A stretch of 63,960 nucleotides of DNA, counting the filler, from Reclinomonas americana ATCC 50394 (Eukaryota), in the NCBI GenBank assembly GCA_048213135.1. It is 15 parts of 15 records of this genome, joined end to end, with 100 filler letters (N's around TTAATTAATTAA, not from the genome) between each part and the next. Parts side by side here need not be neighbours in the genome. Positions count along the whole stretch, not along the records: positions 37,073 to 43,093 come from AFZH01022430.1; 14 more parts are not named here. One strand, given 5' to 3'. Below, piece by piece: positions 3,543 through 44,413 of the stretch. Under the pieces are notes generated by a model. The model was given only the letters and a program-made list of their open reading frames with translations, made no database searches and had not been told where the DNA came from. Position 1 is the first letter of the stretch, and every line of letters begins with the position of its first letter. A program made the translations under genes and the position numbers.

Positions 3543-6500
3543 ATGAGCCGCGGCGACTACGACGAGCGCATCACGCTCATCGGCGGCGCACACAACGACG
3601 GCACGTCCCCACTCCCCTCCACACACACAAACAAACAAACAAACGCACATGTCGCGACATCTCACTCTATTCCTTCTCTCGCGCGTGCACAGGCCACCTC
3701 TCCGCCGGCTCTGTGACCACCGACGACGAGAAGCCAGTGCGCACCAACACTGGTGGTGGTGGCGGAGGGCGCACGGAGTTGGAGGAGCACGAGGCACCCA
3801 AGTGGGTCAGCAACTGGCGACTTTTCCTCACCACCATTTGCTTTGCCGGAGTCCAGTTTGGATGGGTGAGAGCAAAGAGAGAGAGAGAGAGAGACACACA
3901 GAGAGACACGCATGTGCATTCGTGATGTGATTCATGATTGAGTGGGAAAACTCCGCATCTCCCTCATTCTCTTTCTTTTCTCACTCTCTTTTTCTTTCTC
4001 TCTCTGTGTTTGTGTGGTACAGGCGCTTCAGATTGGTCAGATGACGCCCTTCTTGCAAGAAGACATCAAGCTGCCGAAGGCCATGTCGACATTGGTGTGG
4101 CTTGTCGGACCGCTGTCAGGTGAGAGACTCATGCGTTTCACTGCCTCCCTCCCTCACAGTGCTGCACTCTCGGAGCACTCAGCACTCTCCACTCTGTTCC
4201 CTGTCTCATTACTCAGTGGCTTCCTTCACTGTGATCTCTGCGTTTATCATCAGCAATCGCTGGCATCTCTTGTCACTCTCAGCGCCCTGCTCCTTTGCTG
4301 TTGGGGACTCTGCACACTTACTTTCTCACTCTTTCTGTACTCGCTTGGCTTCCTTCATGCGTTGAGTCACTGCTTCTCTCACTCCTTTCTCAGCTCCTCT
4401 CCCTTGTTCACCCGAGAGCTTCTCTTGGTATCTTTACACACTGTCTCCCTCGCTCCTTCAGTTCTCACAGGCAACACTTGTCACTGTGTTCACTACCTCA
4501 CTCACTCCTTCCGCACTCGCTGGAGTCACTGCTTCTCTTTCTCCTCACCTTCTCTCTTCCTCTCTTCTGCGCTTCCCCTTTGCTCTTTTGGTGTCTTCAC
4601 ACACTGTCTCCCTCGCTCCTTCACATCTCGCAAGCAACGCTCATCACTGTGTTCATTACCTCGCTCTCTCCTTCACACTCGCTGGCGTCACTGCTTCTCT
4701 CACTCCTCACCTTCTCACACTCTGTCTCCCTCGCTCCCTCTCTTTCTCGCAGGCGTAGCCATCTCTCAGTTTACTGCCTCGCCCACTCATCAGTACTCGC
4801 TGGAGTCACTGCTTCTCTCTTCCTTTCTTCTGCTCTTCCCCTTTGTTTTCTTTGTCTCCCACGCTATCTTCTCAATTCGTTGGCAACGCTCATAACTCTG
4901 TTCACTGCTCCGCTTCTCTCTCTCTTCCTCTCTTCTGCGCTTCCCCTTATCTCTCTTGGTTACCCTCCACACTGCCCTCCCTCTCCCACCCGTCACTGCT
5001 CTGGAGTTCTTCGTGCTCCTCTCATTCTGCATCCTTCCACCGCCCTTTGCTCGTTGTGATCCCACTGTCAAGACATTCTCCTCCTTCCTGTACCCTCCCT
5101 CCCCCTTCACCCCTCTCACTTGCCTCACCCCACCAGGTCTCATTGTGCAACCGACTGTCGGCGTGCTCTCCGATAAGTTGCGATTTGAACAAGTGCCTTG
5201 TCGCGCACAATCACCACCAGCTCACTCTGTCTCCTGCACAGCTGCACGAGCAAGTTTGGTCGGCGGCGGCCTTTTATTGTCGTCGGAGCCATCTGCGTCG
5301 GTGTGTTACTCGGAGTGAGGGAAACACGCTGTTTGCTGCTGGCGTGGTTGTTCACTGTTGCGCAGCCATGGCCCTGCTGTTGATCCCCAACTCTCCGGAC
5401 ATTGGACGCGCGTGGGGTGACAAGCCAGGCGAGGGTAACAACCCAGCCGCCGTGGCGCTTGCAGTTTCGTGATCATCCCGATGCCTTTCGCTTGATGTAC
5501 TACCCTCCTCTCCTGTACTTGTTAAGCGCAATGCACTGTTGCCAATGATCCTCGCTCACACGCTATCCGTTGGCACTCTTCCGCCTTATCCTGTGTACTT
5601 GTCTCTCTCCATCTTTTCTTCTCTTTTGTACGCTTCTCACCTCTTCTCTTCTCNNNNNNNNNNNNNNNNNNNNNNNNNNNNNNNNNNNNNNNNNNNNTTA
5701 ATTAATTAANNNNNNNNNNNNNNNNNNNNNNNNNNNNNNNNNNNNNNNNNNNNTCATCTCTTCTCCTCTCTCTTTCCTTCTCTTCCCATTTCTTGTTCTC
5801 CTTCTCATCCCATTACTTCTCTCCGCTTCTCTCCCCTTCTCGGCTCCTCTCATCTCTTCTCCTCTCTTCTCCTCTTCCCCCCCATTTATTCTCTTCTCTC
5901 CACTTCTCTTGTCTCTCTCCTCTCTGCTTCGGCTCCTCTCATCTCTTCTCCTCCTCTTTTCCCCCATTTATTCTCCTCTCTCCACTTCTCTTATCTCTCT
6001 CCTCTCTGCTTCTCTCCTCTTCTATCCCTTCTTGACTCTTCTCCCCCATTTATTCTCTTCTCTCCACTTCTCTTCTCTCTCTCCTCTCTGCTTCGGCTCC
6101 TCTCATCTCTTCTCCTCCTCTTCTCCCCCCTCTTTTCCTCCCTCTTTTCCTTCTCTTGTCTCTCTCCTCTCCGCTTCTCTCCTCTTCTATCCCCTCTTGA
6201 CTCTTCTTCTCTCTTCTCCTCACTCTTCTCCTCCTTCTTTTCCTTCCCTTTGCATTTCTTCTCATCTCTCATCTTCTCGCCCTCCGTTCCCCCTTTCCCC
6301 TTCCCCCTCTTCCCCCTCCTTCCCCTTCCCCCTTATCCCCCCTTTCCCCTCCTTCCCCTTCCTTCCCCCTTCCCCCTCATCCAGGTCATCGGCTTCGCTC
6401 TCTTGGACTGCAGCAACAACATGCTACAGGGACCGTGCCGTGCACTTTTGGTGGACGTGGCACATCCAGAACAGCAAGAGATCGGCAACGCATTCTTCTC

Positions 6501-8093
6501 CGTCGCCCTCGGTGCGTGCCGCCGACTCACCACCTCTCAAGCACTCCCTTTCCCTTCCCTCATTTCCTCCTCCCCCAGGCATCGGCAACGTGGCTGGCTA
6601 CCTGGCCGGCACCGTCAAGTGGTCCACCATGATGCCGTGGCTCAACACATCGGCGTGCCTCTCTGCCTGCGGCAGTGCACGCTTTGCATTCAGTTTCGTC
6701 AACCTTTTCTTCCCTCCCCTTCTCTCTTCCTCTTTCCTGACTCTCGCGCAGGTCTTTCCGTGATCTTCCTGTCGGTGACCGTATTCATCACCGCGTGGAC
6801 CACATCGGAGAAGCCGCTGAAGAAGTTGCCGGGCCCCAAGCCGCACTGCTGCCGCAGCACCGCCAAGGTGTTTATCGACATTTTCCGGTCCATTCGACAC
6901 ATGCCGTCGGCCATGATTCGCATCTGCCTCGTCCAGTTCTTCTCGTGGTTTGTATCTCTTTCGCACCCGTTCCCTTCCTTCGCTCGCCTTCCTCGTCGTC
7001 GCTCACTCCTCTCCGCAAAGGATTGGCTGGTTCGCCTTCCTCATCTCCATCACGGATTGGGTGGGCCAAGACGTCAACGGCGGCAACCCGCAAGCCGATC
7101 CCGGCACGAGCGCCAGGGAAAAGTACGAGGAAGGTGTACGCATGGCGCAGTACGGCCTGGCTGGCTACGCCGGCCTTTCGCTCGCCGTGTCGCCACTCAT
7201 CGCCAAAGCATCGAAGAAGTTTGGCGAGCGTACCGTGTGGTTCTTTGGTCAGATTTGCATGGCTGTGGCCCTCGGCGTCACGCCGCTGGTCAACTCCATC
7301 GCATGTTACTTTTTCTCCTGTGCTCTATGTGCATCTCGCGACGCTTTGCATGTACTCATGCTTGGCGTGCAGCTGCCTGCATCGTGATCACGGTCTTTGG
7401 CATCCCGTGGGCGGTCACCATGATCATCCCGTACGCCATGACAGCCAGCGTGTCTCCGCTGCAAGACCGCGGGCTGTTCATGGGTTCGTGTATAGCAGTC
7501 GGGGATTGTGTGCGTGTGAGAAGAGAGAGAGAGAGAGTGAGTGAGAGGGGAGAACTCACGCCTCTCTGGTTTTCCTCTCTCGCTCCATCCCTTTGCCTCT
7601 TTCCTCTCATCTTTGTCTCACATCCCCTCCGTTTCCGGTTGTCTCTTGCACTCTTATTCTCACTCCTCACTCACCTTTGTTACATTTTGCATTCCGCTCC
7701 TGTCCTTCACACTTTTTGCTCTCCTTCTTGTTCCCGTTCTGGGCGTGTCTGTGCACTGCAGCTGGCTGACACACAGTTGGCGCGCAGGCACACTGAATAT
7801 CTTTGTCGTGCTGCCGGAGTTCCTGATGGCCCTCGTACAAGGTCCACTGGTCACCAAGTTCAACAAGGTGTACGCCGGACTGCTGCTCGGTGCCGGTGCC
7901 TCCATCATTTGTTGCGTCGCCTTCGCTCTTTCTCCTCCCTCTTCTATTTCCTGCCACTAACGCTTGAAAATCAGCCGCCCTCTGCTGCTTCTTGCTGATT
8001 GTGCGCAAGGGCAAGGGCGAACTGACGAGAGAGACGCGCGCCGAGTACGGCACCCTGCACTCCGACGTCGAGTCAACGAGCTCGAAGCACTAA
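3543..8093 (+). CDS. Sucrose/H+ symporter-like MFS transporter (plant SUC/SUT, SLC45 family), multi-exon, spans a gap
   Basis: Spliced motifs AGVQFGW|ALQ, WLVGPLSG|LIVQPTVGVLSD, SKFGRRRPFI, LLDCSNNMLQGPCRALLVD, FFSW|IGWFAF, GLFMG|TLNIFVVLPE. Confidence 0.92.
4130..5030. repeat. Degenerate intronic minisatellite / pyrimidine-rich repeat
   Basis: Recurrent units such as gctggagtcactgcttctct and cacactgtctccctcgctcc inside a transporter intron. Confidence 0.7.
5654..5753. other. Artificial scaffold gap spacer (first of 14)
   Basis: N44-TTAATTAATTAA-N44 with six-frame stops. Others at 8597, 16388, 20876, 23142, 29353, 33163, 35837, 36973, 43094, 44299, 48420, 60821 and 62021. Genes continue across several of them and true gap sizes are unknown. 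Confidence 0.98.
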
Positions 8094-8715
8094 AGAAATC
8101 CACCGCAAGTGGACACGATAGGAGAGTCCCCACGTGGGGGCGAGAAGAAGAGCTTGTGTTTTTCCTTTATGAAAGTTTTGTTTGCGTTTCATCATCGCCG
8201 AGTTGTCCTGCAGGCAGTTCGAAATCGAGTTGCCGGCAAGTGCACAGCCGCGCTCGTCCCTTCTTCTCTCTGTCTCTTCTCCTCTGTGTCTCTCTCTCCT
8301 ACCATCCGTCGACGAAAATGTCGTTTTCCAACGCGGGTGCGCCACCAGATCGCTCTGGCGGGAATCCCTCCTTCTCCATCTCCTCCTCCTCCCATTCCTC
8401 TTCCTCCTCTTCTTCATCATCGCTGCGCCACCTCCTCACCTCACACGCGGCCTCTCTCGCCAAACACTCTCTCCACCGGCGATTCCGTCACAAGAGGCGC
8501 GTCTCGCCCGACCATCTCCAACACATGCTCGCCACCGCACGACGCCGCCGCCTCCACGGTGACTCACCTTCCTCTCCACCTCCACCTCCTCCACCTNNNN
8601 NNNNNNNNNNNNNNNNNNNNNNNNNNNNNNNNNNNNNNNNTTAATTAATTAANNNNNNNNNNNNNNNNNNNNNNNNNNNNNNNNNNNNNNNNNNNNTCCG
8701 TCGTCGACTCTACCG

Positions 8716-25158: not shown

Positions 25159-27673
25159 ATGTCTTCTCTGCAAGAGACTGTGGTGTTGGAAGGCATGACG
25201 GCCATGTCCACTGTCGCTGACGTGGCACGCAACGCTCAGCGCGCGCTTCAAGCCACTGCGCGCAGAGGCAGTCGTGTGAAGGTGATGTCTGTGAATGGCC
25301 TGACACGCGCCAATTGGCGTAAGACTTTGGCGGAGTGCGGATGGGATCCGCAGGCGCGAATGGATGTGTGCTTTTGGTGAGTGCCTCTTCGGCCCCCCAC
25401 TTCGCTGCGCGCGCTTTTGTGACTCACACATACTCTCTCTCTCGCTCGCTTGCTTACACAGCAGTGGGGATGGCGTGACGGCAGCTAGAATGCGCCTTCG
25501 TGCATTCTATTGTGGGGGACAAGAGGTTGAGGATCGAGATCGCGTGTGTGCGTGGGGAATGTTCAGTGCAATTAGAAGCGGTGCTGTGCGAGCGGGATAT
25601 GATCATCTAGAGTGTGGAGGCGGAAGGAAGCGCGAGGCGGTGACGAAGCGCAACAAGAGAACTCGCGGCAAGACGTATATCCAGGTTCGTGGTGTCGCTC
25701 TTTACCCGATCTCTTTCACTGAGGTGTGTGCTTACTTTCCCTTCTCGACAGGTGCCAGCTGCGCACGACTATGAACTGATGATCGATGCAATGATGCCAT
25801 TGACACTGTCTCACTCGCGTTGCCGAGCTTCAGAGGCGTCGTGTGACTCTTGTGAACAATTGTTGGATCTCGACCATGTTGCGTCCGTTGGTGACGACGA
25901 CTCTGAAGCTATGGACTACGACGATGAGTGTGGTTGCGGTGTCGGTGGCGGAGCTGGTTGCAGCAGAGCACACTCGGCGGGTTGCGACCATGCTCACCAT
26001 GGTCATCTGGCGGAAACAGTCTCGAGCGTACGCCTTGTATTGGGTGAAGACGGTTCATCTTGGGAGTCGCACTGCGATCACTGCGGAGATTGTGTTTACG
26101 GTCGTGGAAGAACTGTGACTCTTCCGATGGTGCCTGCGTGTGCTGGGAACGATGGTCCTGTGGGCGTGCTTCCGCCGGCAACTTGGACTACGACGGTGTA
26201 TGAGGCACCTGTGATGAAGCCCACCATGCCCATGCCTGTGAGCAGACCGACCGCGATCTATGTCCCCACGGTCTCCCGATTCCCAGCTCTCAATCTGCCG
26301 CCACCTACTCTCCCGCCACCTATTCTGCACCCGCCGCCACCGCCTGCTTACCCAGCTCCCGAACTTCGACCATTGACAATGCAGCAAGAACCACAACAAC
26401 AACCACCACCAGCATTTCCAGCCCCCGAGCTACCGCCACCGGCATCGACTGTATCATCGGCTGATCGGTAAGCATTGTGCCGTGTTCTTTATGTAGACAG
26501 AATATTACTGTCAGTCGTGTTCCATTTCCGGCAGTGGCATGTTTTCAGAGATACAGTGTCGTATGTCGTATTCTAAATCCTGTCGTCTGCACAAACAGGC
26601 TTCCGGCATTTGAGTTGCCATACAGCCCCTACGCACTGGCCGCCTTCCGGAGAGCCGTGGACTTGCTTCAGGTTTGTTTATGCTGCTTCTGCTTTTATTA
26701 GTTTGTTATTTTTGCTAATATTTTTCTGATGATCAGCATGCCCCGAACCCCGTTTTCCCGCTCTCGCAACTGGCCAAGCGCAACTGCGAGACACACCTCG
26801 ATGTGGACGCCGGCCGCCAGCAGATCATGTTTGACTTTATGCGGCGGGCGGGCTGCGGCCCGCACGTGCAGCACCTCAAGCCGGAGGACTTGCAAATTCT
26901 CTTCGAGTTGTACGATCGAGTCTTCTTTCAGGACCTGATCTCCCGGGTGTTCAAGTACCACAATCGGACGTTGAAATTCACTGTGGCATCGAGCGGCGAT
27001 CGTCGTGCCGGCCACTTTTCTCGTCGCGGTGTGGCGCACGAGATTTCGATTTCATTCGCCCTCATTGCCACCGCCGTGCCACGGCCGTTTTTCGCAGCTG
27101 AGCAACCGGTTTGTGTGCTCGTCGCCAAGCTTTCTTTTCTGTTGTTCTGCTGCTTCTAGTGCCACTCACTTTTCTGGTGTGTGTCAATGTCAGCAGTCGC
27201 AGGCCGTTCCGATTGTCGAGTCGTCGGGCGACCTCTTTTCTCCGGAGCCTGGCACCCCGCAGACTTGGAATGCGGAACCAGTGTTCCCGCCCTCCGAGAC
27301 CGCAGTGCCGTACGCCACAGGCGTGCTGGTCGGCGAACTGCAGCAGACCGCCACAGGCTTCAACACCTTTGAGAAGGCGGTGGTGGAGGAGGAGGAGGCG
27401 GCGGCGGCGGAGAAGCTGCAGCAGGCGACTGCCGAACCATCACCGTTCTCTATCGGATCGGTGTCTGTGTGTGGCCACGACTGTCACTCGCGCCTGGCCG
27501 CGCTCATGCGTGTGTTTGAGCACGAGCTTGCGCACTTGCTGTGCTTTTCGAATTATTTCACCCTGGAGGACAGCCACGGACCGGAGTTCAAGGCGATTGT
27601 GTTTGCCTTTTTCCGACACGGCGATGTGACGCATCGGCTTGCGTCCTCGGTTCCTCCGTGTGGATCTCGGTGA
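25159..27673 (+). CDS. Ubiquitin-like header + Cys/His-rich + Pro-rich linker + SprT-like zinc metalloprotease
   Basis: LFELYDRVFF...RRAGHF...EISIS, then FEHELAHLL (HExxH, 27521-27535) and SHGPEFK. The N-terminus VVLEGMTAMSTVADVARNA matches the header exon of the NLR-like genes. Confidence 0.8.
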
Positions 27674-29345: not shown

Positions 29346-29452
29346 GACGACGNNNNNNNNNNNNNNNNNNNNNNNNNNNNNNNNNNNNNNNNNNNNTTAA
29401 TTAATTAANNNNNNNNNNNNNNNNNNNNNNNNNNNNNNNNNNNNNNNNNNNN

Positions 29453-36930
<7,478 letters not shown>

Positions 36931-37098
36931 TGCGTTTGCTTGTGGACTGGACACGCGTTTTTCTTGTAACACNNNNNNNNNNNNNNNNNNNNNNNNNNNN
37001 NNNNNNNNNNNNNNNNTTAATTAATTAANNNNNNNNNNNNNNNNNNNNNNNNNNNNNNNNNNNNNNNNNNNNCACGCACGCTGCGGAGAAGTACGGTC

Positions 37099-37142
<44 letters not shown>

Positions 37143-37293
37143 AAGTGTGTGATGTGTGTATTGTGGGCCTTTACATTCTCTTCCAATGGTATTCCCCACT
37201 CACTCGCTTTAAATTTCTCTTCTCTTTCACCCTCTCTCCCTCTCCCTCGCCCTCTGCCGGTCGTTTTCTCACTCACCACCATCGCTGACAGGT

Positions 37294-37552
37294 TTGCGCA
37301 CACACATGAGTGCATCGCATGCTTCGCCGCTGGCATTTATGGTGGAGGGCTTGGCGGCCGAGTCAGCTCCTTGTTATTTGCAGTCTGAGTCCACTTGCTC
37401 ATTGTGGACGAATAGTGAGGTCGAAGCAACGGTGATTGTGGGGGTGGATAGGCGAGTCGAACTCGTGTTTGACAGTCGCACGTCATGCGAGGCCTCGTTT
37501 GGAATGTGTGGACCTGTCATCGAATCCTGCTGGCAGTCTTCGTTTTCTTCCA
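37294..37552 (+). pseudogene. Diverged extra copy of the ubiquitin-like header exon
   Basis: THMSASHASPLAFMVEGLAAESAPCYLQSESTCSLWTNSEVEATVIVGVD aligns without gaps to VHVSAAHDSSLSVVVESMSALSTLADLLREATRLLREKSGDEGVEIVGVE. It could also be a live upstream exon. Confidence 0.55.
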
Positions 37553-37962
37553 GGTTGGTTTGTCTTCAGACATCCTTCGCTCTGTAATGCTTTCTGAGTT
37601 CGCGTACCAGGTGCGTCTTCGCGCGCATGTGTTCTTCTTTGTATGTTTGTGTGTTGCCGATTGATGGAGAGGACAAAGCTTTACGCTTGCTGAACATGAG
37701 CGCCTATTGTCTGATCTTTTGCATGCATGCTGACGTAAACCTCGCAGGCTCTTCTTCAAACGGTATCTGTGCCTGCATCGTCGTATTGCTCTTGTGGGCG
37801 GTGGGTGTTGTTCCTCGCGTCAGGCTGCGGCAGACAATAATGGGCGTGCACGTTCCTCCTATTCTGCATCTGCATCTTCCGATGTGTCCACAACTGTGGT
37901 GCGTAGACATCATCCAATGTGTTTCAGGTTTTTTTCTGACAGCATGTATTTTTCACAAACAG

Positions 37963-40900
37963 TTTCCTGTTCGCGTCAGCGCGTTGCACGATACATCGCT
38001 ATGGGTGGTGGTTGAGGGCATGTCGGCCGTGTCGACTCTCGCGGACTTGCTGCGCGAGGCCACACGCTTGCTGCGTGAGAAGAGCGGAGATGCGGAGATG
38101 GAGATTGTGGGAGTGGAGAAACCAATGGAGTTTGACATTGTGGACGGTGGCGACACTCTGCTGCGCACTTTGGAAATTAAGGCCACCACCCATTTGTTTG
38201 TGCGCGTTACCATGCCGTCTGCGACCCCTTCTCCGGCTGTGGGTGGATTCGCAAGGTGACTATTGTTGTTCTGCATGTTGCTGTGTGCACACTTGAGAGA
38301 GCGAGCTCATCTGCACTCTCTGTGTCAAGCGCTCCCGGATGGACGGAGCGGTTTGTCGTCATTCAACGTCACAACTGACTTGTCTGCATTCGTTCCAACT
38401 TGCATGATGTCTCTGCAGAATGGCCCTTTCGAATCGTATCGACGTGGCGTGGGAGGCCGTTGCTGACGCCATACGTCTGCGATGTAGACACACACTGGCA
38501 CAGTTCAGTCGCGATCATCCCGACTTTGACGTGCGGGCTTGGACTCCCGATGTATACACTCCGCCTTTGTTCTGGCATCCTTTGACGATGAAGGCGTGGT
38601 ACGATCAACATGCGCCACTCCACCCTGGTCGAGTCAAGCTATTTGCACCACAACAGCAACACTTGCTCGACTGGAAGACTGCCTTCGATGCCGATCCCGC
38701 CTCTGACCCTCCGTGTGACGCATTTGATGTGACAGCTTTGACGTCGATCCTGCTTTTTGGTGGCTTTGTGCGTGATGGCGGTTGCAAGATGATGTTGATA
38801 GACGATGCCGTTGAACGCAAGACGGTGGAACAGTTGCGAGAGGTGCGTAACACGCTAAGCCATGAATCGTCGGCGTTCAGCGGGGCCTCTGTGCAAGAAT
38901 ATCTCGGTGACCGTGGCGCGTTCCTCGCCCTTGTTGGCAAGTTGCAGCTGCCTGCCGATGCGCTCGATGGATTTGTTTCACGGATTCGCGAAGCACGCCA
39001 TCTGGACGTCAACGTCAGTACATTTGTAGTGCGACTGCATCGACTGGCTGTGCGTGAGCTCACTTTCTACCAGCACGACGAGAGTGTGCACAAGGACATA
39101 CAAACGTATGTGCCGTTACTGTGCTCACGTGAGCGTGACATCTCATCGAGAGACAAGATGACGGATCTGTTGACAGAGGTAGATGCCTTCCTCTCCGACG
39201 CCAACACCACCCATCATGCACTGGTGCTGTTTGGCAACAGTGGTGCTGGCAAGACCACCACCATGTCGGTCCTGGCTGAGCGAGCATGGCGACAGTGGCA
39301 GATTGGAGCAAGCGGACGTGTGCCTGTGCGTGTGCCTCTTGGTGCATTGCGCAATGCCGATGAGCGATTGTTGGAGGAGGCACTGGAACGATTGTCACCC
39401 GAGTTGGGATTCAGTGAGGCGGATGTGCGACGATTGAAGGAGGAACCACTGCTGTTGTTGCTTGACGGGTATGACGAGTTGTACCGTGGTGTGAACCTGT
39501 TTGTCAAGAACCAGCTGGATGTGTGTCGCGATGTGAAGGTGATTATCACCTGTCGAGGCGATTATGCACTGACTGCACTGGGTGGAGCGGCGCAGTATCG
39601 ACGGTACTTTGCGCCAGTGGATGCACGCGGACAGTTATGCATGCATCAGCTGATGGAGAGACACATTGCACCATTCAATAAGGAGCAGATTGAGGAGTAC
39701 TTTGTGAGATTGGTGCAAGCGAGCGGCGAGGACGATGACGGTGGAGTGCAGTGGTCGACTGCCCAGGAGTACATTCGTGCACTGAGGAGTGTACGCGGAC
39801 TGGATACATTGGTGTCGAATCCATTCCTGCTGTCGGTGGTGGCTCGTGTGTTGCCACAGTTGGTGGCGAGTGGCATGCAGCGACCGACTCGGCGAGATGT
39901 GTTTGACCAATTTATTCGGCAGTGGATTGATAGGGAGCAGGAGAGACAGACGCGTCTCGCAGCTGAGCGTTTGCCGAGTGAGGAGACATGTGTCTCATTC
40001 TGTGAGGGACTGGCACGGTTGATGCATGAGAGGAATGTGGTGCGTGTGTCTGTGCTGGAGAGTCGACCAAAGGATAATGGAGAGGAGGATGACTTTGGTG
40101 GTGCGCCACATGGTATTCCACGACGGGAGGAAGAACCGTTTGACAAGTTCCTCGGCCGCAAGAACCAGCATGTGCGAGTGTGCTGTCCGATCGTGCGACG
40201 GTATGGCACGACACAGTGGGGATTCGTGCATCTGTCGTTGTTGGAGCACTGCGTGGCACGGCATGTTTTCGCATGGGAGTCATGGGATGAGGAGAGGAGG
40301 TTGACGATGGAAGATGTGCAACAGCATGTGTTGGCAGTGCGACTGCTGAATGATCGACCTTCGCTGGTGGAGCAGATGGCCGAAGTGGTGCGACGGTCTC
40401 CTCGATTGCAAGCGAGACTGTGGGAGGTGATTGAGTTGTCGAGAAAGATGGATGAAGAGCGAGTGGTGACGGCAGCCGCGAATGCAGCGACGGTGTTGAG
40501 TTTGGCACAAGTGTCGTTCAGTGGGCGCGATCTGTCGGGTGTGCGAGTGCGGGGTGCGGATTTGAGGGATGCGGTGATGCACAAGACGGTGTGGCGAGGG
40601 GCGGATTTGCGTGAGGTGAATGTGTGCATGGCGTATGCGAGGGAGGCGGATTTCAGGGGGGCGGATGTGACGGGTGTGAAGTGGCCGAGGAAGCCTCTGG
40701 TCGGTCATACTGGCTTCGTGAATGCAACTGCCGTTACTCCCGACGGTCTTTGCATTGTAAGCACCAGCCATGATACAACCGTGCGTGTGTGGTCACTGGC
40801 ACATGGTGAAGAAGTACAACGGTTTGAGGGACATGTTGGGTGGGTGTGGGCTGTTGCCGTCACGCCCGATGGGCTACACATTATCAGTGGGGGTCAAGAC

Positions 40901-42169
40901 TCGTCAGTACGTGTGTGGTCACTGGCGAGTGGAAATGAGGTGCGACGGTTGGTTGGACACGTTGGAGCTGTAAATTCTGTCGCTGTCACTCCCGATGGTC
41001 TACATGTTGTAAGCGTGAGTTGGGATAAGACCTTGCGAGTGTGGTCGCTGGAGAGTGGTGAGGAGATGAAACGGCTGGAGGGGCATGAAGGTGTCGTATG
41101 GTGCGTTGCCGTTACTCCTGATGGCCAACACGCTGTGAGTGGGAGTGGAGACAAATCCATTCGGATGTGGTCTCTGGTCAGTGGAGAAGAAGTTCGACGG
41201 TACTACGGACACGCCGATAGCGTACAGTCTGTTGTCGTCACTCCTGATGGTCAGTACATCGTGAGCGGGAGTAATGACAAAACAGCGCGTATTTGGTCAC
41301 TTACAAGCGGGCAAGAAGTGCGGCAACTGGTGGGACACGCTGCCGCTGTACTCTCGGTAGTTGTAACAGTCGATGGCCATTGTGTTGTTAGTGGAAGCGA
41401 GGACATGACCGTTAGAGTATGGTCGCTAGCGAGTGGAGAAGAATTGCGACGGCTGGAGGGACACACGGGATCAGTGAATGCTGTCGCCGTCTCTCCTGAC
41501 AGTAGGCACTTTGTAAGTGGAGGCAGAGATGAAACGGTGCGAGCGTGGTCTGTCGCAAGTGGGGAAGAAGTGCGACGATTGGAGGGACATACTGCTGAGG
41601 TGACCGATGTGGCTCTTGCGTTTACTGCGTGTGGTCAGCTCCTATCTCTCGGTGAGCGCGAATATCCATCTCCACCTGACTACGTTGTTAGTGGGAGCTG
41701 GGACAACTCAGTGCGCGTGTGGTCCTTTGCGAGCGGGGAGATACTGCAACATTTGGTGGGTCACAGTGCCTCTGTACTGACTGTTACAGTCACTCACGAC
41801 GGCAAGTACATTGTGAGCGGAAGTGTTGACAAGAGTGTTCGAGTGTGGAATCTGGCGAGCGGTGCGGAAGTCCGACGGCTGGAGGGGCACACCAGCTCAG
41901 TGTTTTCTGTCACGATCACTCCTGACGGGCAGCACATCGTAAGTCAAAGTGTTGACAACATTGTGCGAATTTGGTCACTGGCGAGTGGCAATGAAGTGCA
42001 TGAGGGCACGCCGGATGCCGTTTCCTTCGCCCATCGCGCCGTCGCAGTCGCGGCAGACTTGACCATTCGAGGATTGGGCAAGTCAATTATCGTGATGCGA
42101 GAGCAGCTGCACGAGCGGATATTTGGTTCATTTATGCCAGACTTTACTGACGTCGTGTATGATGAGTAA
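37963..42169 (+). CDS. NLR-like protein 1: Ubl header - HEPN - NACHT - pentapeptide - 10x WD40 (start exon not located)
   Basis: Exons 37963-38255, 38330-38350 and 38419-42169 splice in frame. HEPN motifs FDVTALTSIL and RNTLSH (38846-38863). Walker A GNSGAGKT (39233), Walker B LLLLDGYDE, pentapeptides FSGRDLSGVRVRGADL, then GH..WS repeats from ~40696. Confidence 0.88.
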
Positions 42170-42239
42170 ATAAGGAGCGAGGGACAAGGCGAGGGGACAG
42201 AAAAGGGTCCAGGGGAAGGGTCAAGAGTTGAGGGTGGAG

Positions 42240-42960
42240 AGAGAGAGAGAGGCAAGAGAGACGAGAGAGGAAGACGAGGCAATAGAGGCGAAAGAGGCAA
42301 GATAGGCAAGAGAGAGGCAAGAGAGAGGCAAGAGAGGAAGAGAAGCAAGAGAGAGGCAAGAGAGGCAAGAGAGGCAAGAGAGGCAAGAGAGGCAAGAGAG
42401 GCAAGACAGGCAAGACAGGCAAGAGAGGCAAGACAGGTAAGAGAGGCAAGAGAGGCAGGAGAGGCAGGAGAGGCAGGAGAGGCATGAGAGGCAAGAGAAG
42501 CAACAGGGGCAATAGAGACAAGAGAGGCAAGAAAAGCAAGAGATGCAAGAAAGGCAAGAGAGGCAAGAGAGGCAAGACAGGCAAGACAGGCAGACAGGCA
42601 AGACAGGCAAGACTGGCAAGAGTGAGGCAAGAGTGAGGCAAGAGTGAGGAAAGAGTGAGGCAAGAGAGGCAGGAGAGAGGCAAGAGAGGAAGAGAAGCAA
42701 GAGAGGCAAGAGAGGCAGGAGAGGCCAAGAGAGGCAAGAGAGTCGAGAGAGGCAAGACACAAAAGAGAGGCAAGCGAAAGGCAAGTGAGACAGGAGAGAC
42801 AAGACAGGCAAGACTGGCAAGAGAGACGAGAGAACCAACAGACTCATGACTCCTGGAGAGACAGACAAGAAGGGCAAGAGAGGCGAGAGAGGCTAATAGT
42901 GCAAGACAGACAACACAGGCAAAAGAGAAATAGGCAAGAGAGGCAGGTGAGGCAAGCGAA
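42240..42960. repeat. 9-nt minisatellite (AGAGGCAAG)n
   Basis: Dozens of agaggcaag/acaggcaag units immediately downstream of the AKR exon donor site on the minus strand. Confidence 0.9.
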
Positions 42961-42966
42961 AGTCAC

Positions 42967-43093
42967 CTGCAACACGCTCTCCTCCATCTGCGCTCCGCCG
43001 AGGGGCACATACGAGCCAGCACCCAGCGGCGAGTATGCCGTCACACGCACTCCCTCCTCGCGGCAGAAGCGCAGGAGGCGCTCTTGTGTGAGA
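42967..43093 (-). CDS. Internal exon of an aldo-keto reductase
   Basis: QERLLRFCREEGVRVTAYSPLGAGSYV followed by a GTGACT donor. The 5' side runs into a gap. Confidence 0.8.
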
Positions 43094-43483
43094 NNNNNNN
43101 NNNNNNNNNNNNNNNNNNNNNNNNNNNNNNNNNNNNNTTAATTAATTAANNNNNNNNNNNNNNNNNNNNNNNNNNNNNNNNNNNNNNNNNNNNTGCGAAG
43201 GGGACGAAGCGGAGGGGGAAGTGAGGTGAGATAGAGAAGAAAGGGAAAGGAGAGGGAGCCAAGGAGAGAGAGGTAAAAGAGAGAGGGTAGGAGGGAACCA
43301 AGGAGAGGGAGGGAAAAAGAGAGAGCTAAGAAGAGAGAGGGAACGAGAGGGGGCCAAGGAGAGAGCGCGAAGGAGAGGGAGTACATTCTCAAGGAATGTA
43401 TTCTCTCCTTCTCCTTCTCTCTCCCTTCCCATTCCCCTTTTCCCACCCTTTCCCTTCTCTCTCCCTCCCTCTCTCTTGTTCAC

Positions 43484-43889: not shown

Positions 43890-44413
43890 ATGGCGGCGAG
43901 TGGCTCCGGGTCGCGTTCCGTCCTCGACCTTGACAACCCAGAGTTCTGTTGTCCGTGTGTGATTGATGTTGTCAGATGTCGCACTCACATCTCTGCTCGG
44001 CCGTCAGGTGTGCCAACTATGTGCGGTTCATGGCAGCCACGTTTGAGATGACCAAGGCACTGCAGCGCGAGTGTCATCATCGCCTCGCTGCCCTTCGTCG
44101 CATGTCGCCGGAATTTGATCCGCGTGAGTGGCTGAAGGGGGAGAAGAAGGCCAAGGCGAGGTATGTGTTTGGAAGTTGTGCGTTGAGGGTGCGAGTGCGA
44201 AACAAGAAATGTGTGCAGACGGGAGCTGAGAGAATAGAAGTGGAGGAACCGAGGGTTTGCGTGCAATAAGGGATTCAAACGAAGAGAGAGAGAGAGAANN
44301 NNNNNNNNNNNNNNNNNNNNNNNNNNNNNNNNNNNNNNNNNNTTAATTAATTAANNNNNNNNNNNNNNNNNNNNNNNNNNNNNNNNNNNNNNNNNNNNTC
44401 TTCTTTCTTTCTT

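Follow-up and report, generated by a model that had tools for sequence, protein, structure and literature searches.

Two NACHT-pentapeptide-WD40 genes of Reclinomonas americana with a variable N-terminal head that may be a very divergent HEPN domain

Results

Gene 1 and gene 2 in the window

The window analysed here, 63,960 nucleotides of DNA from Reclinomonas americana ATCC 50394 (assembly GCA_048213135.1), contains two paralogous genes, gene 1 and gene 2, that encode an intact STAND ATPase of the NACHT type with a pentapeptide beta-helix and an array of WD40 repeats behind it, and with a variable, selectively maintained module at the N-terminus. A reading of gene 1 made from the sequence alone, below called the sequence-only reading, had proposed a HEPN-NACHT-pentapeptide-WD40 architecture, that is a NOD-like receptor (NLR) with a built-in RNase effector. 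The NACHT, pentapeptide and WD40 parts were all recovered in our analysis, and the HEPN part only partly, with sequence support that lies below threshold and is consistent.

The window is divided into 15 contigs by 14 artificial joints, each made of 44 N, TTAATTAATTAA and 44 N (5654-5753, 8597-8696, 16388-16487, 20876-20975, 23142-23241, 29353-29452, 33163-33262, 35837-35936, 36973-37072, 43094-43193, 44299-44398, 48420-48519, 60821-60920 and 62021-62120). About half of these contigs end at or beside GA, CT, CA or GT microsatellites. The contig with gene 1 (37073-43093) has 6,021 bases and the one with gene 2 (48520-60820) has 12,301 bases. Since the two genes are on separate contigs that are only artificially linked, their order and distance in the window are uninformative about a tandem arrangement, and no tandem duplication is claimed. 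The features of the two genes are the following:

37963 to 38255, plus strand: exon 2 of gene 1, the ubiquitin-like (Ubl-like) segment, about 97 codons and two bases of a split codon
38256 to 38418, plus strand: intron 2 of gene 1, 163 nucleotides, GT...AG, phase 2, read from the sequence
38419 to 42169, plus strand: exon 3 of gene 1, one base of the split codon, 1249 codons and the stop
38570 to 38944, plus strand: HEPN-like domain, residues ~51-175, from a sub-cutoff match to Pfam HEPN_Swt1, hhalign and MAFFT
38846 to 38863, plus strand: RNTLSH motif, residues 143-148
38945 to 39199, plus strand: helical linker ahead of NACHT, residues 176-260, common to the relatives
39200 to 39739, plus strand: NACHT NTPase, residues ~261-440, from Pfam PF05729 and the Walker motifs
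39740 to 40474, plus strand: helical region behind NACHT, residues 441-685, with invariant columns in common with the relatives
40475 to 40687, plus strand: AANAATVL motif (residues 686-693) and pentapeptide-repeat beta-helix (residues ~694-756)
40697 to 42004, plus strand: WD40 repeats, residues ~760-1195, ten Pfam stretches, with an 18-residue insertion in one blade
42005 to 42169, plus strand: C-terminal tail and stop, with a terminal motif in common with gene 2, read directly
54226 to 58991, plus strand: gene 2, the paralogue on another contig, with 14 WD40 stretches and the motif RNKLRH
54336 to 54628, plus strand: exon 2 of gene 2, Ubl-like, bounded by CAG and AG/GTGCAT
54812 to 58991, plus strand: exon 3 of gene 2, an intact open reading frame (ORF) of about 1390 codons
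51386 to 51643, minus strand: relic of the start of exon 3 (residues 14-74 of the N-domain), an open stretch of 86 residues

The ORF of gene 1, at 38420-42169 on the plus strand, is intact and runs uninterrupted through 1249 codons, and the base ahead of it, 38419, is the first one following a CAG acceptor. Exon 2 begins behind the acceptor CAG at 37960-37962 and ends at AG/GTGACT (38255/38256). The counterpart of intron 2 in gene 2 is 183 nucleotides long, with a codon position and phase identical to those in gene 1, and both introns end in CAG, four codons ahead of the common residues S-N-R-I. At the position of the ATG of gene 1 there is a GTG codon in gene 2, whose own ATG, at 54792, is found 7 codons upstream of that position, where the sequence of gene 2 does not resemble that of gene 1. 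Because the introns and frames are conserved in both paralogues, and because of the GTG in gene 2, the ATG at 38420 is read as internal and is probably not the start codon of gene 1. The protein layout would then be a short exon 1 followed by the Ubl-like exon and the exon of 1249 codons. A candidate for exon 1 was read by eye at 37587-37610 in gene 1, and another is seen at 54226-54231 in gene 2, where ATG TCG is followed by GTGAGT.

It is conceivable, but unlikely, that this gene model is wrong, that the Ubl-like ORF is a separate small gene upstream or a case of non-coding conservation, and that the two proteins start at ATG 38420 and ATG 54792. Each gene does have an in-frame ATG at or just ahead of the start of exon 3, and the search for exon 1 of gene 1 yielded nothing convincing, only the candidate just given. 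However, the protein similarity of the upstream segment begins right after the CAG acceptor and stops at AG/GT in both paralogues, both introns end at the shared position, both junctions keep the frame in phase 2, and the two start codons do not correspond, gene 2 having GTG where gene 1 has ATG and its own ATG lying in a stretch that is not similar.

The NACHT-pentapeptide-WD40 core and its relatives

The Pfam models of NACHT and Pentapeptide exceed their cut-offs in both genes. NACHT (PF05729) matches residues 268-430 with 32.8 bits in gene 1 and 37.7 bits in gene 2, the cut-off being 26.7, and Pentapeptide (PF00805) matches residues 695-723 with 29.9 bits, the cut-off being 20.2. Solved pentapeptide proteins in the PDB match residues 691-756 with E-values down to 1.3e-8. 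The Walker A motif GNSGAGKTT (residues 272-280, 39233-39259) and the Walker B motif LLLLDGYDE (residues 345-353, 39452-39478) are intact, as the sequence-only reading had said, and both are present in both genes.

When residues 240-760 were used as query, 34 of the 7,999 candidates scored were found at E <= 0.001, with E-values ranging from 3.5e-53 to 6e-4 and identities of 25-33%. The top matches are metagenomic kinase-NACHT-pentapeptide-WD40 proteins (E 3.5e-53, 32% identity), and next to them are proteins of Mycoavidus, Glomeribacter, Linnemannia and Mortierella (25-32% identity, E 7e-43 to 4e-16), which cover 51-100%, mostly 85-100%, of the query. The A-A-N-A-x-T-x-L columns are invariant in gene 1 and the relatives. 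A likeness of the core to proteins of Mortierellaceae, Mycoavidus and ciliates had been proposed in the sequence-only reading; it was borne out for Mycoavidus and Mortierellaceae, at about 30% identity, and no ciliate relative was seen among the 34 matches. Counting one genome per species, relatives were found at 74 prokaryotic loci, 72 of them from metagenome-assembled genomes (MAGs) of Mycoavidus cysteinexigens, one from a Chlamydiae MAG and one from a Bacteroidota MAG. The alignment search of metagenome contigs with the core gave 0 of 275 candidates.

A quick maximum-likelihood tree was made from 33 of 36 proteins, leaving out P0021, in which the pattern used found no Walker A, as well as P0032 and P0034, in which only 11-12% of the query was matched. 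In this tree the pair of gene 1 and gene 2 has its own long branch (1.07), outside the clade of Mycoavidus and Mortierellaceae, which holds 19 of the 33 rows with a Shimodaira-Hasegawa approximate likelihood ratio (SH-aLRT) support of 99. Gene 1 and gene 2 are distant members of the wider NACHT-pentapeptide-WD40 family only.

The similarity to the relatives does not extend to the N-terminus. Matches of tblastn to the Mycoavidus loci begin at query residues 147-250, many of them at 170-250, and a profile search (hmmsearch) over 31 N-termini from the 34 relatives gave weak alignments of residues 226-260, just ahead of the Walker A of the relatives, and no similarity ahead of the pre-NACHT linker. 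These two results together imply that residues 1 to ~175 are specific to the genes of the window. The precomputed domain lists of the relatives include kinase, TIR_2 and Peptidase_C14, which would precede NACHT, judging from the position of Walker A at residues 326-487. Since the relatives have differing heads (kinase, TIR, caspase and helical solenoids), the N-terminal position is that of a swappable head. According to the available parts of the published texts, from which the literature is cited here and below, NACHT-PPR-WD40 NOD-like receptors are common to Mortierellomycota and Mycoavidus (Ciach et al. 2024, PMC11291939), and the members from fungi and from Mycoavidus begin with a long alpha-solenoid, which exceeds 500 residues and has no known function (PMC9815663).

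The N-terminal head

The sequence-only reading had noted the motif R-N-x-x-x-H in both paralogues, and it is indeed there, as RNTLSH at residues 143-148 of gene 1 and as RNKLRH in gene 2. Upstream of RNTLSH an acidic residue, D103, is found within the motif FDVTAL. Both hexapeptides agree with the pattern Rx4-6H with a polar residue after the R; the bare motif is not specific. The Pfam model HEPN_Swt1 (PF18731), with a cut-off of 27.5 bits, matched gene 1 with 15.3, 17.3 and 18.6 bits when pieces of 760, 250 and 137 residues were submitted (E 0.024, 0.0059 and 0.0023), and in the match residues 131-169, with the motif included, fall on profile positions 74-111 of 115.

To this can be added comparisons with a set of Swt1-like HEPN domains from 30 of 401 Bacteroidota genomes, of which 24 of the 30 loci were kept, L080, L082-L085 and L096 (four near-identical, two similar) being dropped as redundant on inspection. 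The alignment of the two paralogues (residues 50-215) against these 24 domains gave an hhalign score of 26.6 (P 5.7e-4, probability 29.6%, 105 columns), and paired FDVTAL with the D-x3-L helix of the family and RNTLSH with RNxxAH. None of 200 column shuffles reached this score (mean 11.7, standard deviation 2.5, maximum 24.3), and the reversed alignment scored 11.1. As a natural null, 68 windows of 166 residues from the helical N-termini of the relatives were scored in the same way, with a mean of 11.8 and a maximum of 22.2. All 68 of these windows fall below the score of gene 1 alone (26.3) and 67 of them below that of gene 2 alone (19.1), and four other windows of gene 1 scored 10.9-14.1. 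In a blind MAFFT alignment of 26 sequences, the two paralogues and the 24 domains, R143 and H148 were the sole invariant columns, and D103 is placed on the D-x3-L column of the family by both MAFFT and hhalign, in an alignment at only 11-22% identity. A language model placed residues 1-250 near the HEPN_Swt1 cluster (0.81) and the HEPN_DZIP3 cluster (0.79). In both AlphaFold2 (AF2) models a hairpin insert precedes a long helix, the motif stands at the end of this helix, and a loop and two more short helices come next. The order of the helices would fit a four-helix up-down bundle, and the placement of the motif matches the position described for HEPN helix 3 (PMC3710099).

A number of results weigh against a HEPN assignment. 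The HEPN_Swt1 score is 9-10 bits short of the curated cut-off, hmmscan gave no Pfam HEPN match in gene 2, and a local hidden Markov model of bacterial Swt1 domains gave 9 bits, and that in gene 1 only. Addition of 11 of 12 Pseudomonadota domains to the hhalign set (L116, a partial match, was dropped) did not raise the score, which became 25.2 (P 8.8e-4, probability 23%), with 105-108 columns overall, and one unrelated natural window, from P0031, scored as high as 22.2. The pattern R[NHD]xxxH is found again at residue 716 in gene 1 and three times in gene 2. Language-model scores below 0.9 are leads only, and the three sequence tests are not mutually independent, since they share the same family and motif. 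The structure predictions were of little help. With a shallow alignment of three rows the AF2 model had a predicted local distance difference test (pLDDT) value of 40.6 and was unusable, and with bacterial HEPN rows in the alignment it had 61.8, with 49 of 126 residues at 70-90; this second model is not independent, because the bacterial rows bias it. Foldseek on the PDB gave 0 matches at E <= 0.001 and a wide structural search gave generic helical matches only (Z <= 5.3), and the models are too poor to support the fold. A homodimer prediction with two copies of residues 50-215 gave no answer, the fold of the chain itself being uncertain, and it counts neither way.

The searches for relatives of the N-domain were all negative. 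Relatives numbered 0 of 1,835,955,588 representative proteins in an exhaustive phmmer search, 0 of 2486 candidates in a word-indexed search and 0 of 805 candidates in an alignment search at E <= 10, and 0 of 332 pattern matches were confirmed in metagenome contigs and 0 of 132 in viral contigs. No HEPN-type match on the N-domain was found in PADLOC, NCBIfam or PHROGs, and a profile search of the PDB returned one row at chance level (E 0.98).

Divergence and selection between the paralogues

The proteins of gene 1 and gene 2 are 71% identical over 1216 aligned residues. The identity is lowest in residues 51-175, 56%, as compared to 88% in NACHT, 89% in the pentapeptide part and 82% in the region behind NACHT. 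The ratio of non-synonymous to synonymous substitution rates (dN/dS, Nei-Gojobori) is 0.25 in residues 51-175, 0.14 in NACHT, 0.14-0.15 in NACHT/pentapeptide and 0.28 in the Ubl-like exon, with a range of 0.14-0.38 across every segment. The ratio of 0.25 implies that the N-terminal head has been selectively maintained in both copies, and the head is at the same time the fastest-changing part of the protein, as effector heads of NLRs often are.

The motif has been kept while neighbouring residues have diverged, and in the sequence-only reading this was taken as a sign of selection on catalysis. Two paralogues are too weak a basis for that conclusion. At 56% identity, three particular residues would all be kept with a frequency of about 0.18, and at the 43% identity counted by eye over the 30 residues that surround the motif this frequency would be about 8%. 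With a chance expectation of 8-18% for the retention of R, N and H, and a motif that recurs elsewhere in the proteins, the two copies cannot show selection on catalysis.

The Ubl-like exon

The exon at 37963-38255 has 64-65% protein identity to the segment at 54336-54628 of gene 2, starting directly after the acceptor. It has short hydrophobic strands that alternate with one long amphipathic helix, a pattern that would fit a beta-grasp and that we treat as a lead. Of the clusters shown for its 30 language-model neighbours, those that bear a name are all ubiquitin/Rad60-SLD (0.87-0.88), the top neighbour (0.91) being unnamed, and no Ubl family match was found in Pfam at E <= 10, in NCBIfam or in the PDB profile search. 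The ubiquitin-like identity of the exon should accordingly be taken as a lead as well. The sequence-only reading, given for 38419-42169, had spoken of a Ubl+HEPN N-terminus on the core; the Ubl-like segment lies upstream of that stretch, in a separate exon and with no profile match.

Pieces of related genes

The relic at 51386-51643 is situated about 3 kb upstream of gene 2, on the opposite strand, and has 51% identity over 61 residues (tblastn, E 2e-13). Its sequence resembles gene 2 more closely than gene 1, and nothing similar to the remainder of the family gene was found beside it.

WD40 pieces were also seen on the last contig, at 62349-62600 and 63697-63960 on the plus strand, the second being ended by the window edge. 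Their repeats are up to 58% identical to those of gene 1 (71% in one short match), no NACHT part was found on that contig, and the pieces probably represent a third member of the family, or part of such a member. Protein-kinase fragments are present at 45532-46121 on the plus strand, where an open stretch of 142 residues matches Pfam Pkinase with E 1.6e-9. Weak similarity (24%) links them with the kinase head of one metagenomic kinase-NACHT-pentapeptide-WD40 relative, and another member of the family may be their source, as its exons or its debris.

Outside the window, the top hhalign score in the natural null, 22.2 with a probability of 10%, came from residues 167-332 of P0031 (Mortierella sp.). 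It is conceivable that the N-terminus of this protein might be a second divergent HEPN-like head in the family.

Other features of the window

An ORF of 715 codons at 30350-32497 on the plus strand has glycine/asparagine-rich repeats and a weak match to the Chlamydia PMP repeat (E 0.0034), which suggests a beta-helix surface protein. Its final ~50 codons, with many G, E, R and K, belong to AG-rich sequence that is closely followed by a long GA microsatellite. At contig ends (32834-33162 and 29296-29352) the (GA)n/(CT)n microsatellites are very long, with hundreds of bases, and several 2-kb bins of the window have strong GC and AT skews.

The sole RNA gene found in the window is a tRNA-Leu (CAG) gene at 1861-1945 on the minus strand, and Rfam gave no match across the whole window. 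Pfam matches below threshold were obtained in short open stretches for SprT-like (27005-27670, plus strand, E 1.7e-4) and MFS_1 (6917-7384, plus strand, E 2.5e-4), and on 112 other ORFs of the window Pfam gave fragments only. The weak fragments and the few matches on the 112 ORFs suggest intron-split genes or a large amount of non-coding DNA.

Discussion

We read gene 1 and its paralogue as a one-protein NLR-type switch of NACHT, pentapeptide and WD40 parts with a very divergent Swt1-like HEPN RNase as its head, and give this reading a probability of roughly 0.55. That the head, residues ~51-175, has a HEPN fold seems fairly probable, and that it is a catalytically active RNase somewhat less so. 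From what is generally known of NLRs and HEPN RNases, and from the available part of PMC3710099, the following mechanism can be imagined. The WD40/pentapeptide part would bind the trigger and keep the protein off until the ligand is bound. An ATP-dependent oligomerisation of NACHT would then draw the N-terminal domains together, and in the paired HEPN domains R143, N144 and H148 together with D103 would form a metal-independent RNase site, whose cleavage of RNA would lead to growth arrest or cell death. The Ubl-like exon could in such a protein be a regulatory or docking cap, which docks a partner or restrains the head.

The head may instead be a helical domain peculiar to this lineage, on the same NLR-type switch, that serves as an adaptor or for oligomerisation and has no RNase activity, its R-N-x3-H being fortuitous or a relic. 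We find this explanation doubtful but not far-fetched. No profile match reaches a curated cut-off, and gene 2 has none at all; the 1,835,955,588 representatives contain no relative, and there is no fold match; the motif pattern is present two to three times per protein by chance and its retention in two paralogues is not significant. The relatives in Mortierellaceae and Mycoavidus moreover bear long helical N-termini, of function not known according to the available text of PMC9815663. Against this, the alignment to the Swt1-like HEPN domains spans 105 columns and not the motif alone; none of the 200 shuffles reaches its score, and none of the 68 natural helical windows reaches the score of gene 1. 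The R and H also fall on the sole invariant columns of the family, and the language model, an independent method, points to two HEPN families.

It is very improbable that the genes are decaying copies, bacterial contamination from an endosymbiont, or a recent transfer without function. Endosymbiotic bacteria are among the nearest named relatives, broken pieces of the family are found nearby (the relic at 51386-51643 and the WD40 pieces of the last contig), and the assembly is very fragmented. But the ORFs are intact, with 1249 and about 1390 codons, and dN/dS is 0.14-0.38 in every segment. The genes have GT-AG introns at conserved positions and microsatellite-rich flanks of eukaryote type, and a long branch of their own outside the clade of Mycoavidus and Mortierellaceae, at about 30% identity. 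A trypanosomatid origin, first suggested by CT/GA tracts and by long ORFs that lack introns, was given up in view of the conserved GT-AG introns.

If the preferred reading of the head as an RNase is pursued, it can be proposed, tentatively and at somewhat less than even odds, that the head is an unrecognised HEPN family restricted to its lineage, capped by a ubiquitin-like domain, and the RNase warhead of a eukaryotic NACHT-pentapeptide-WD40 receptor. This would imply that the receptor family has been independently armed with an RNase in a non-animal eukaryote, HEPN-NACHT fusions being known in animals. If the head is not HEPN, there remain two intact genes of a receptor family already in print, with an orphan domain as their head, and the interest is modest.

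Comparison with known systems

N-terminal HEPN domains on NACHT or STAND proteins are already in print for bacteria, cnidarians, cephalochordates and bivalves, and the suggestion that an RNase-armed NLR would in itself be unusual was overstated. Bacterial HEPN-STAND proteins, and CXorf38-type HEPN-NACHT proteins in cephalochordates and cnidarians, have been described (Anantharaman et al. 2013, PMC3710099), and a list of the effectors that bacterial NACHT proteins carry includes HEPN (Kibby et al., bioRxiv 10.1101/2022.07.19.500537). In the pearl oyster there are more than 50 NACHT proteins with an N-terminal DZIP3-like HEPN, and WD40 or TPR repeats can be found at the C-terminus of NACHT proteins encoded in its genome (Takeuchi et al. 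2022, PMC9646362).

The metazoan HEPN-NACHT proteins have the same N-terminal HEPN with Rx4H and an N after the R as is predicted for gene 1, some of them have WD40 or TPR C-termini, and they form expanded, fast-changing families. They differ in that their NACHT is of another clade and that a pentapeptide segment is not mentioned in the available parts of their descriptions. Furthermore, the metazoan HEPN domains pass Pfam PF18738, whereas the head of gene 1 passes no HEPN model; PF18738 was not reported on it by hmmscan even at E <= 10, and appears only as the second language-model neighbour. The bacterial HEPN-STAND and NACHT proteins follow the same logic, in which a sensor driven by NTP has a metal-independent RNase, in our case a predicted one, for its effector. 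In profile comparisons the gene 1 head is most like the Swt1/Abi2-type clade, whose members are mostly bacterial, but gene 1 and gene 2 are eukaryotic genes with introns and no bacterial protein resembling the N-domain was found in the searches.

The order of NACHT, pentapeptide and WD40 and the AANAxTxL columns are the same as in the NACHT-PPR-WD40 NLRs of Mortierellomycota and Mycoavidus cysteinexigens, where the family is multi-copy in Mycoavidus (72 loci). Gene 1 and gene 2 are outside the clade of these NLRs, and their N-terminal module has no similarity to theirs. In a survey of the N-termini of fungal NLRs HEPN occurs 0 times in the main text (PMC9815663). The combination of Ubl and HEPN in one polypeptide is known from sacsin (PMC3710099, available part), a very large chaperone-like protein that has the two at opposite ends and has no STAND NTPase. 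Unlike in sacsin, the putative Ubl of gene 1 directly precedes the HEPN-like domain, both being without confirmation by a profile.

The order HEPN-NACHT-pentapeptide-WD40 was not found described in the texts available to a full-text literature search. Since HEPN-NACHT fusions are in print and this order of four parts was not found, the principle is known, and its combination with this receptor family and with a Ubl-like cap is apparently undescribed. Should the head be an active HEPN RNase, the protein would be a compact sense-and-cut switch for immunity or cell death. An extremely divergent HEPN family, missed by sequence searches, would be added, and with it a pairing of Ubl and HEPN with a testable regulatory meaning. 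The protein would also join the NACHT-pentapeptide-WD40 receptors of Mortierellaceae and their endosymbionts with the RNase-armed NLRs of bacteria and some invertebrates.

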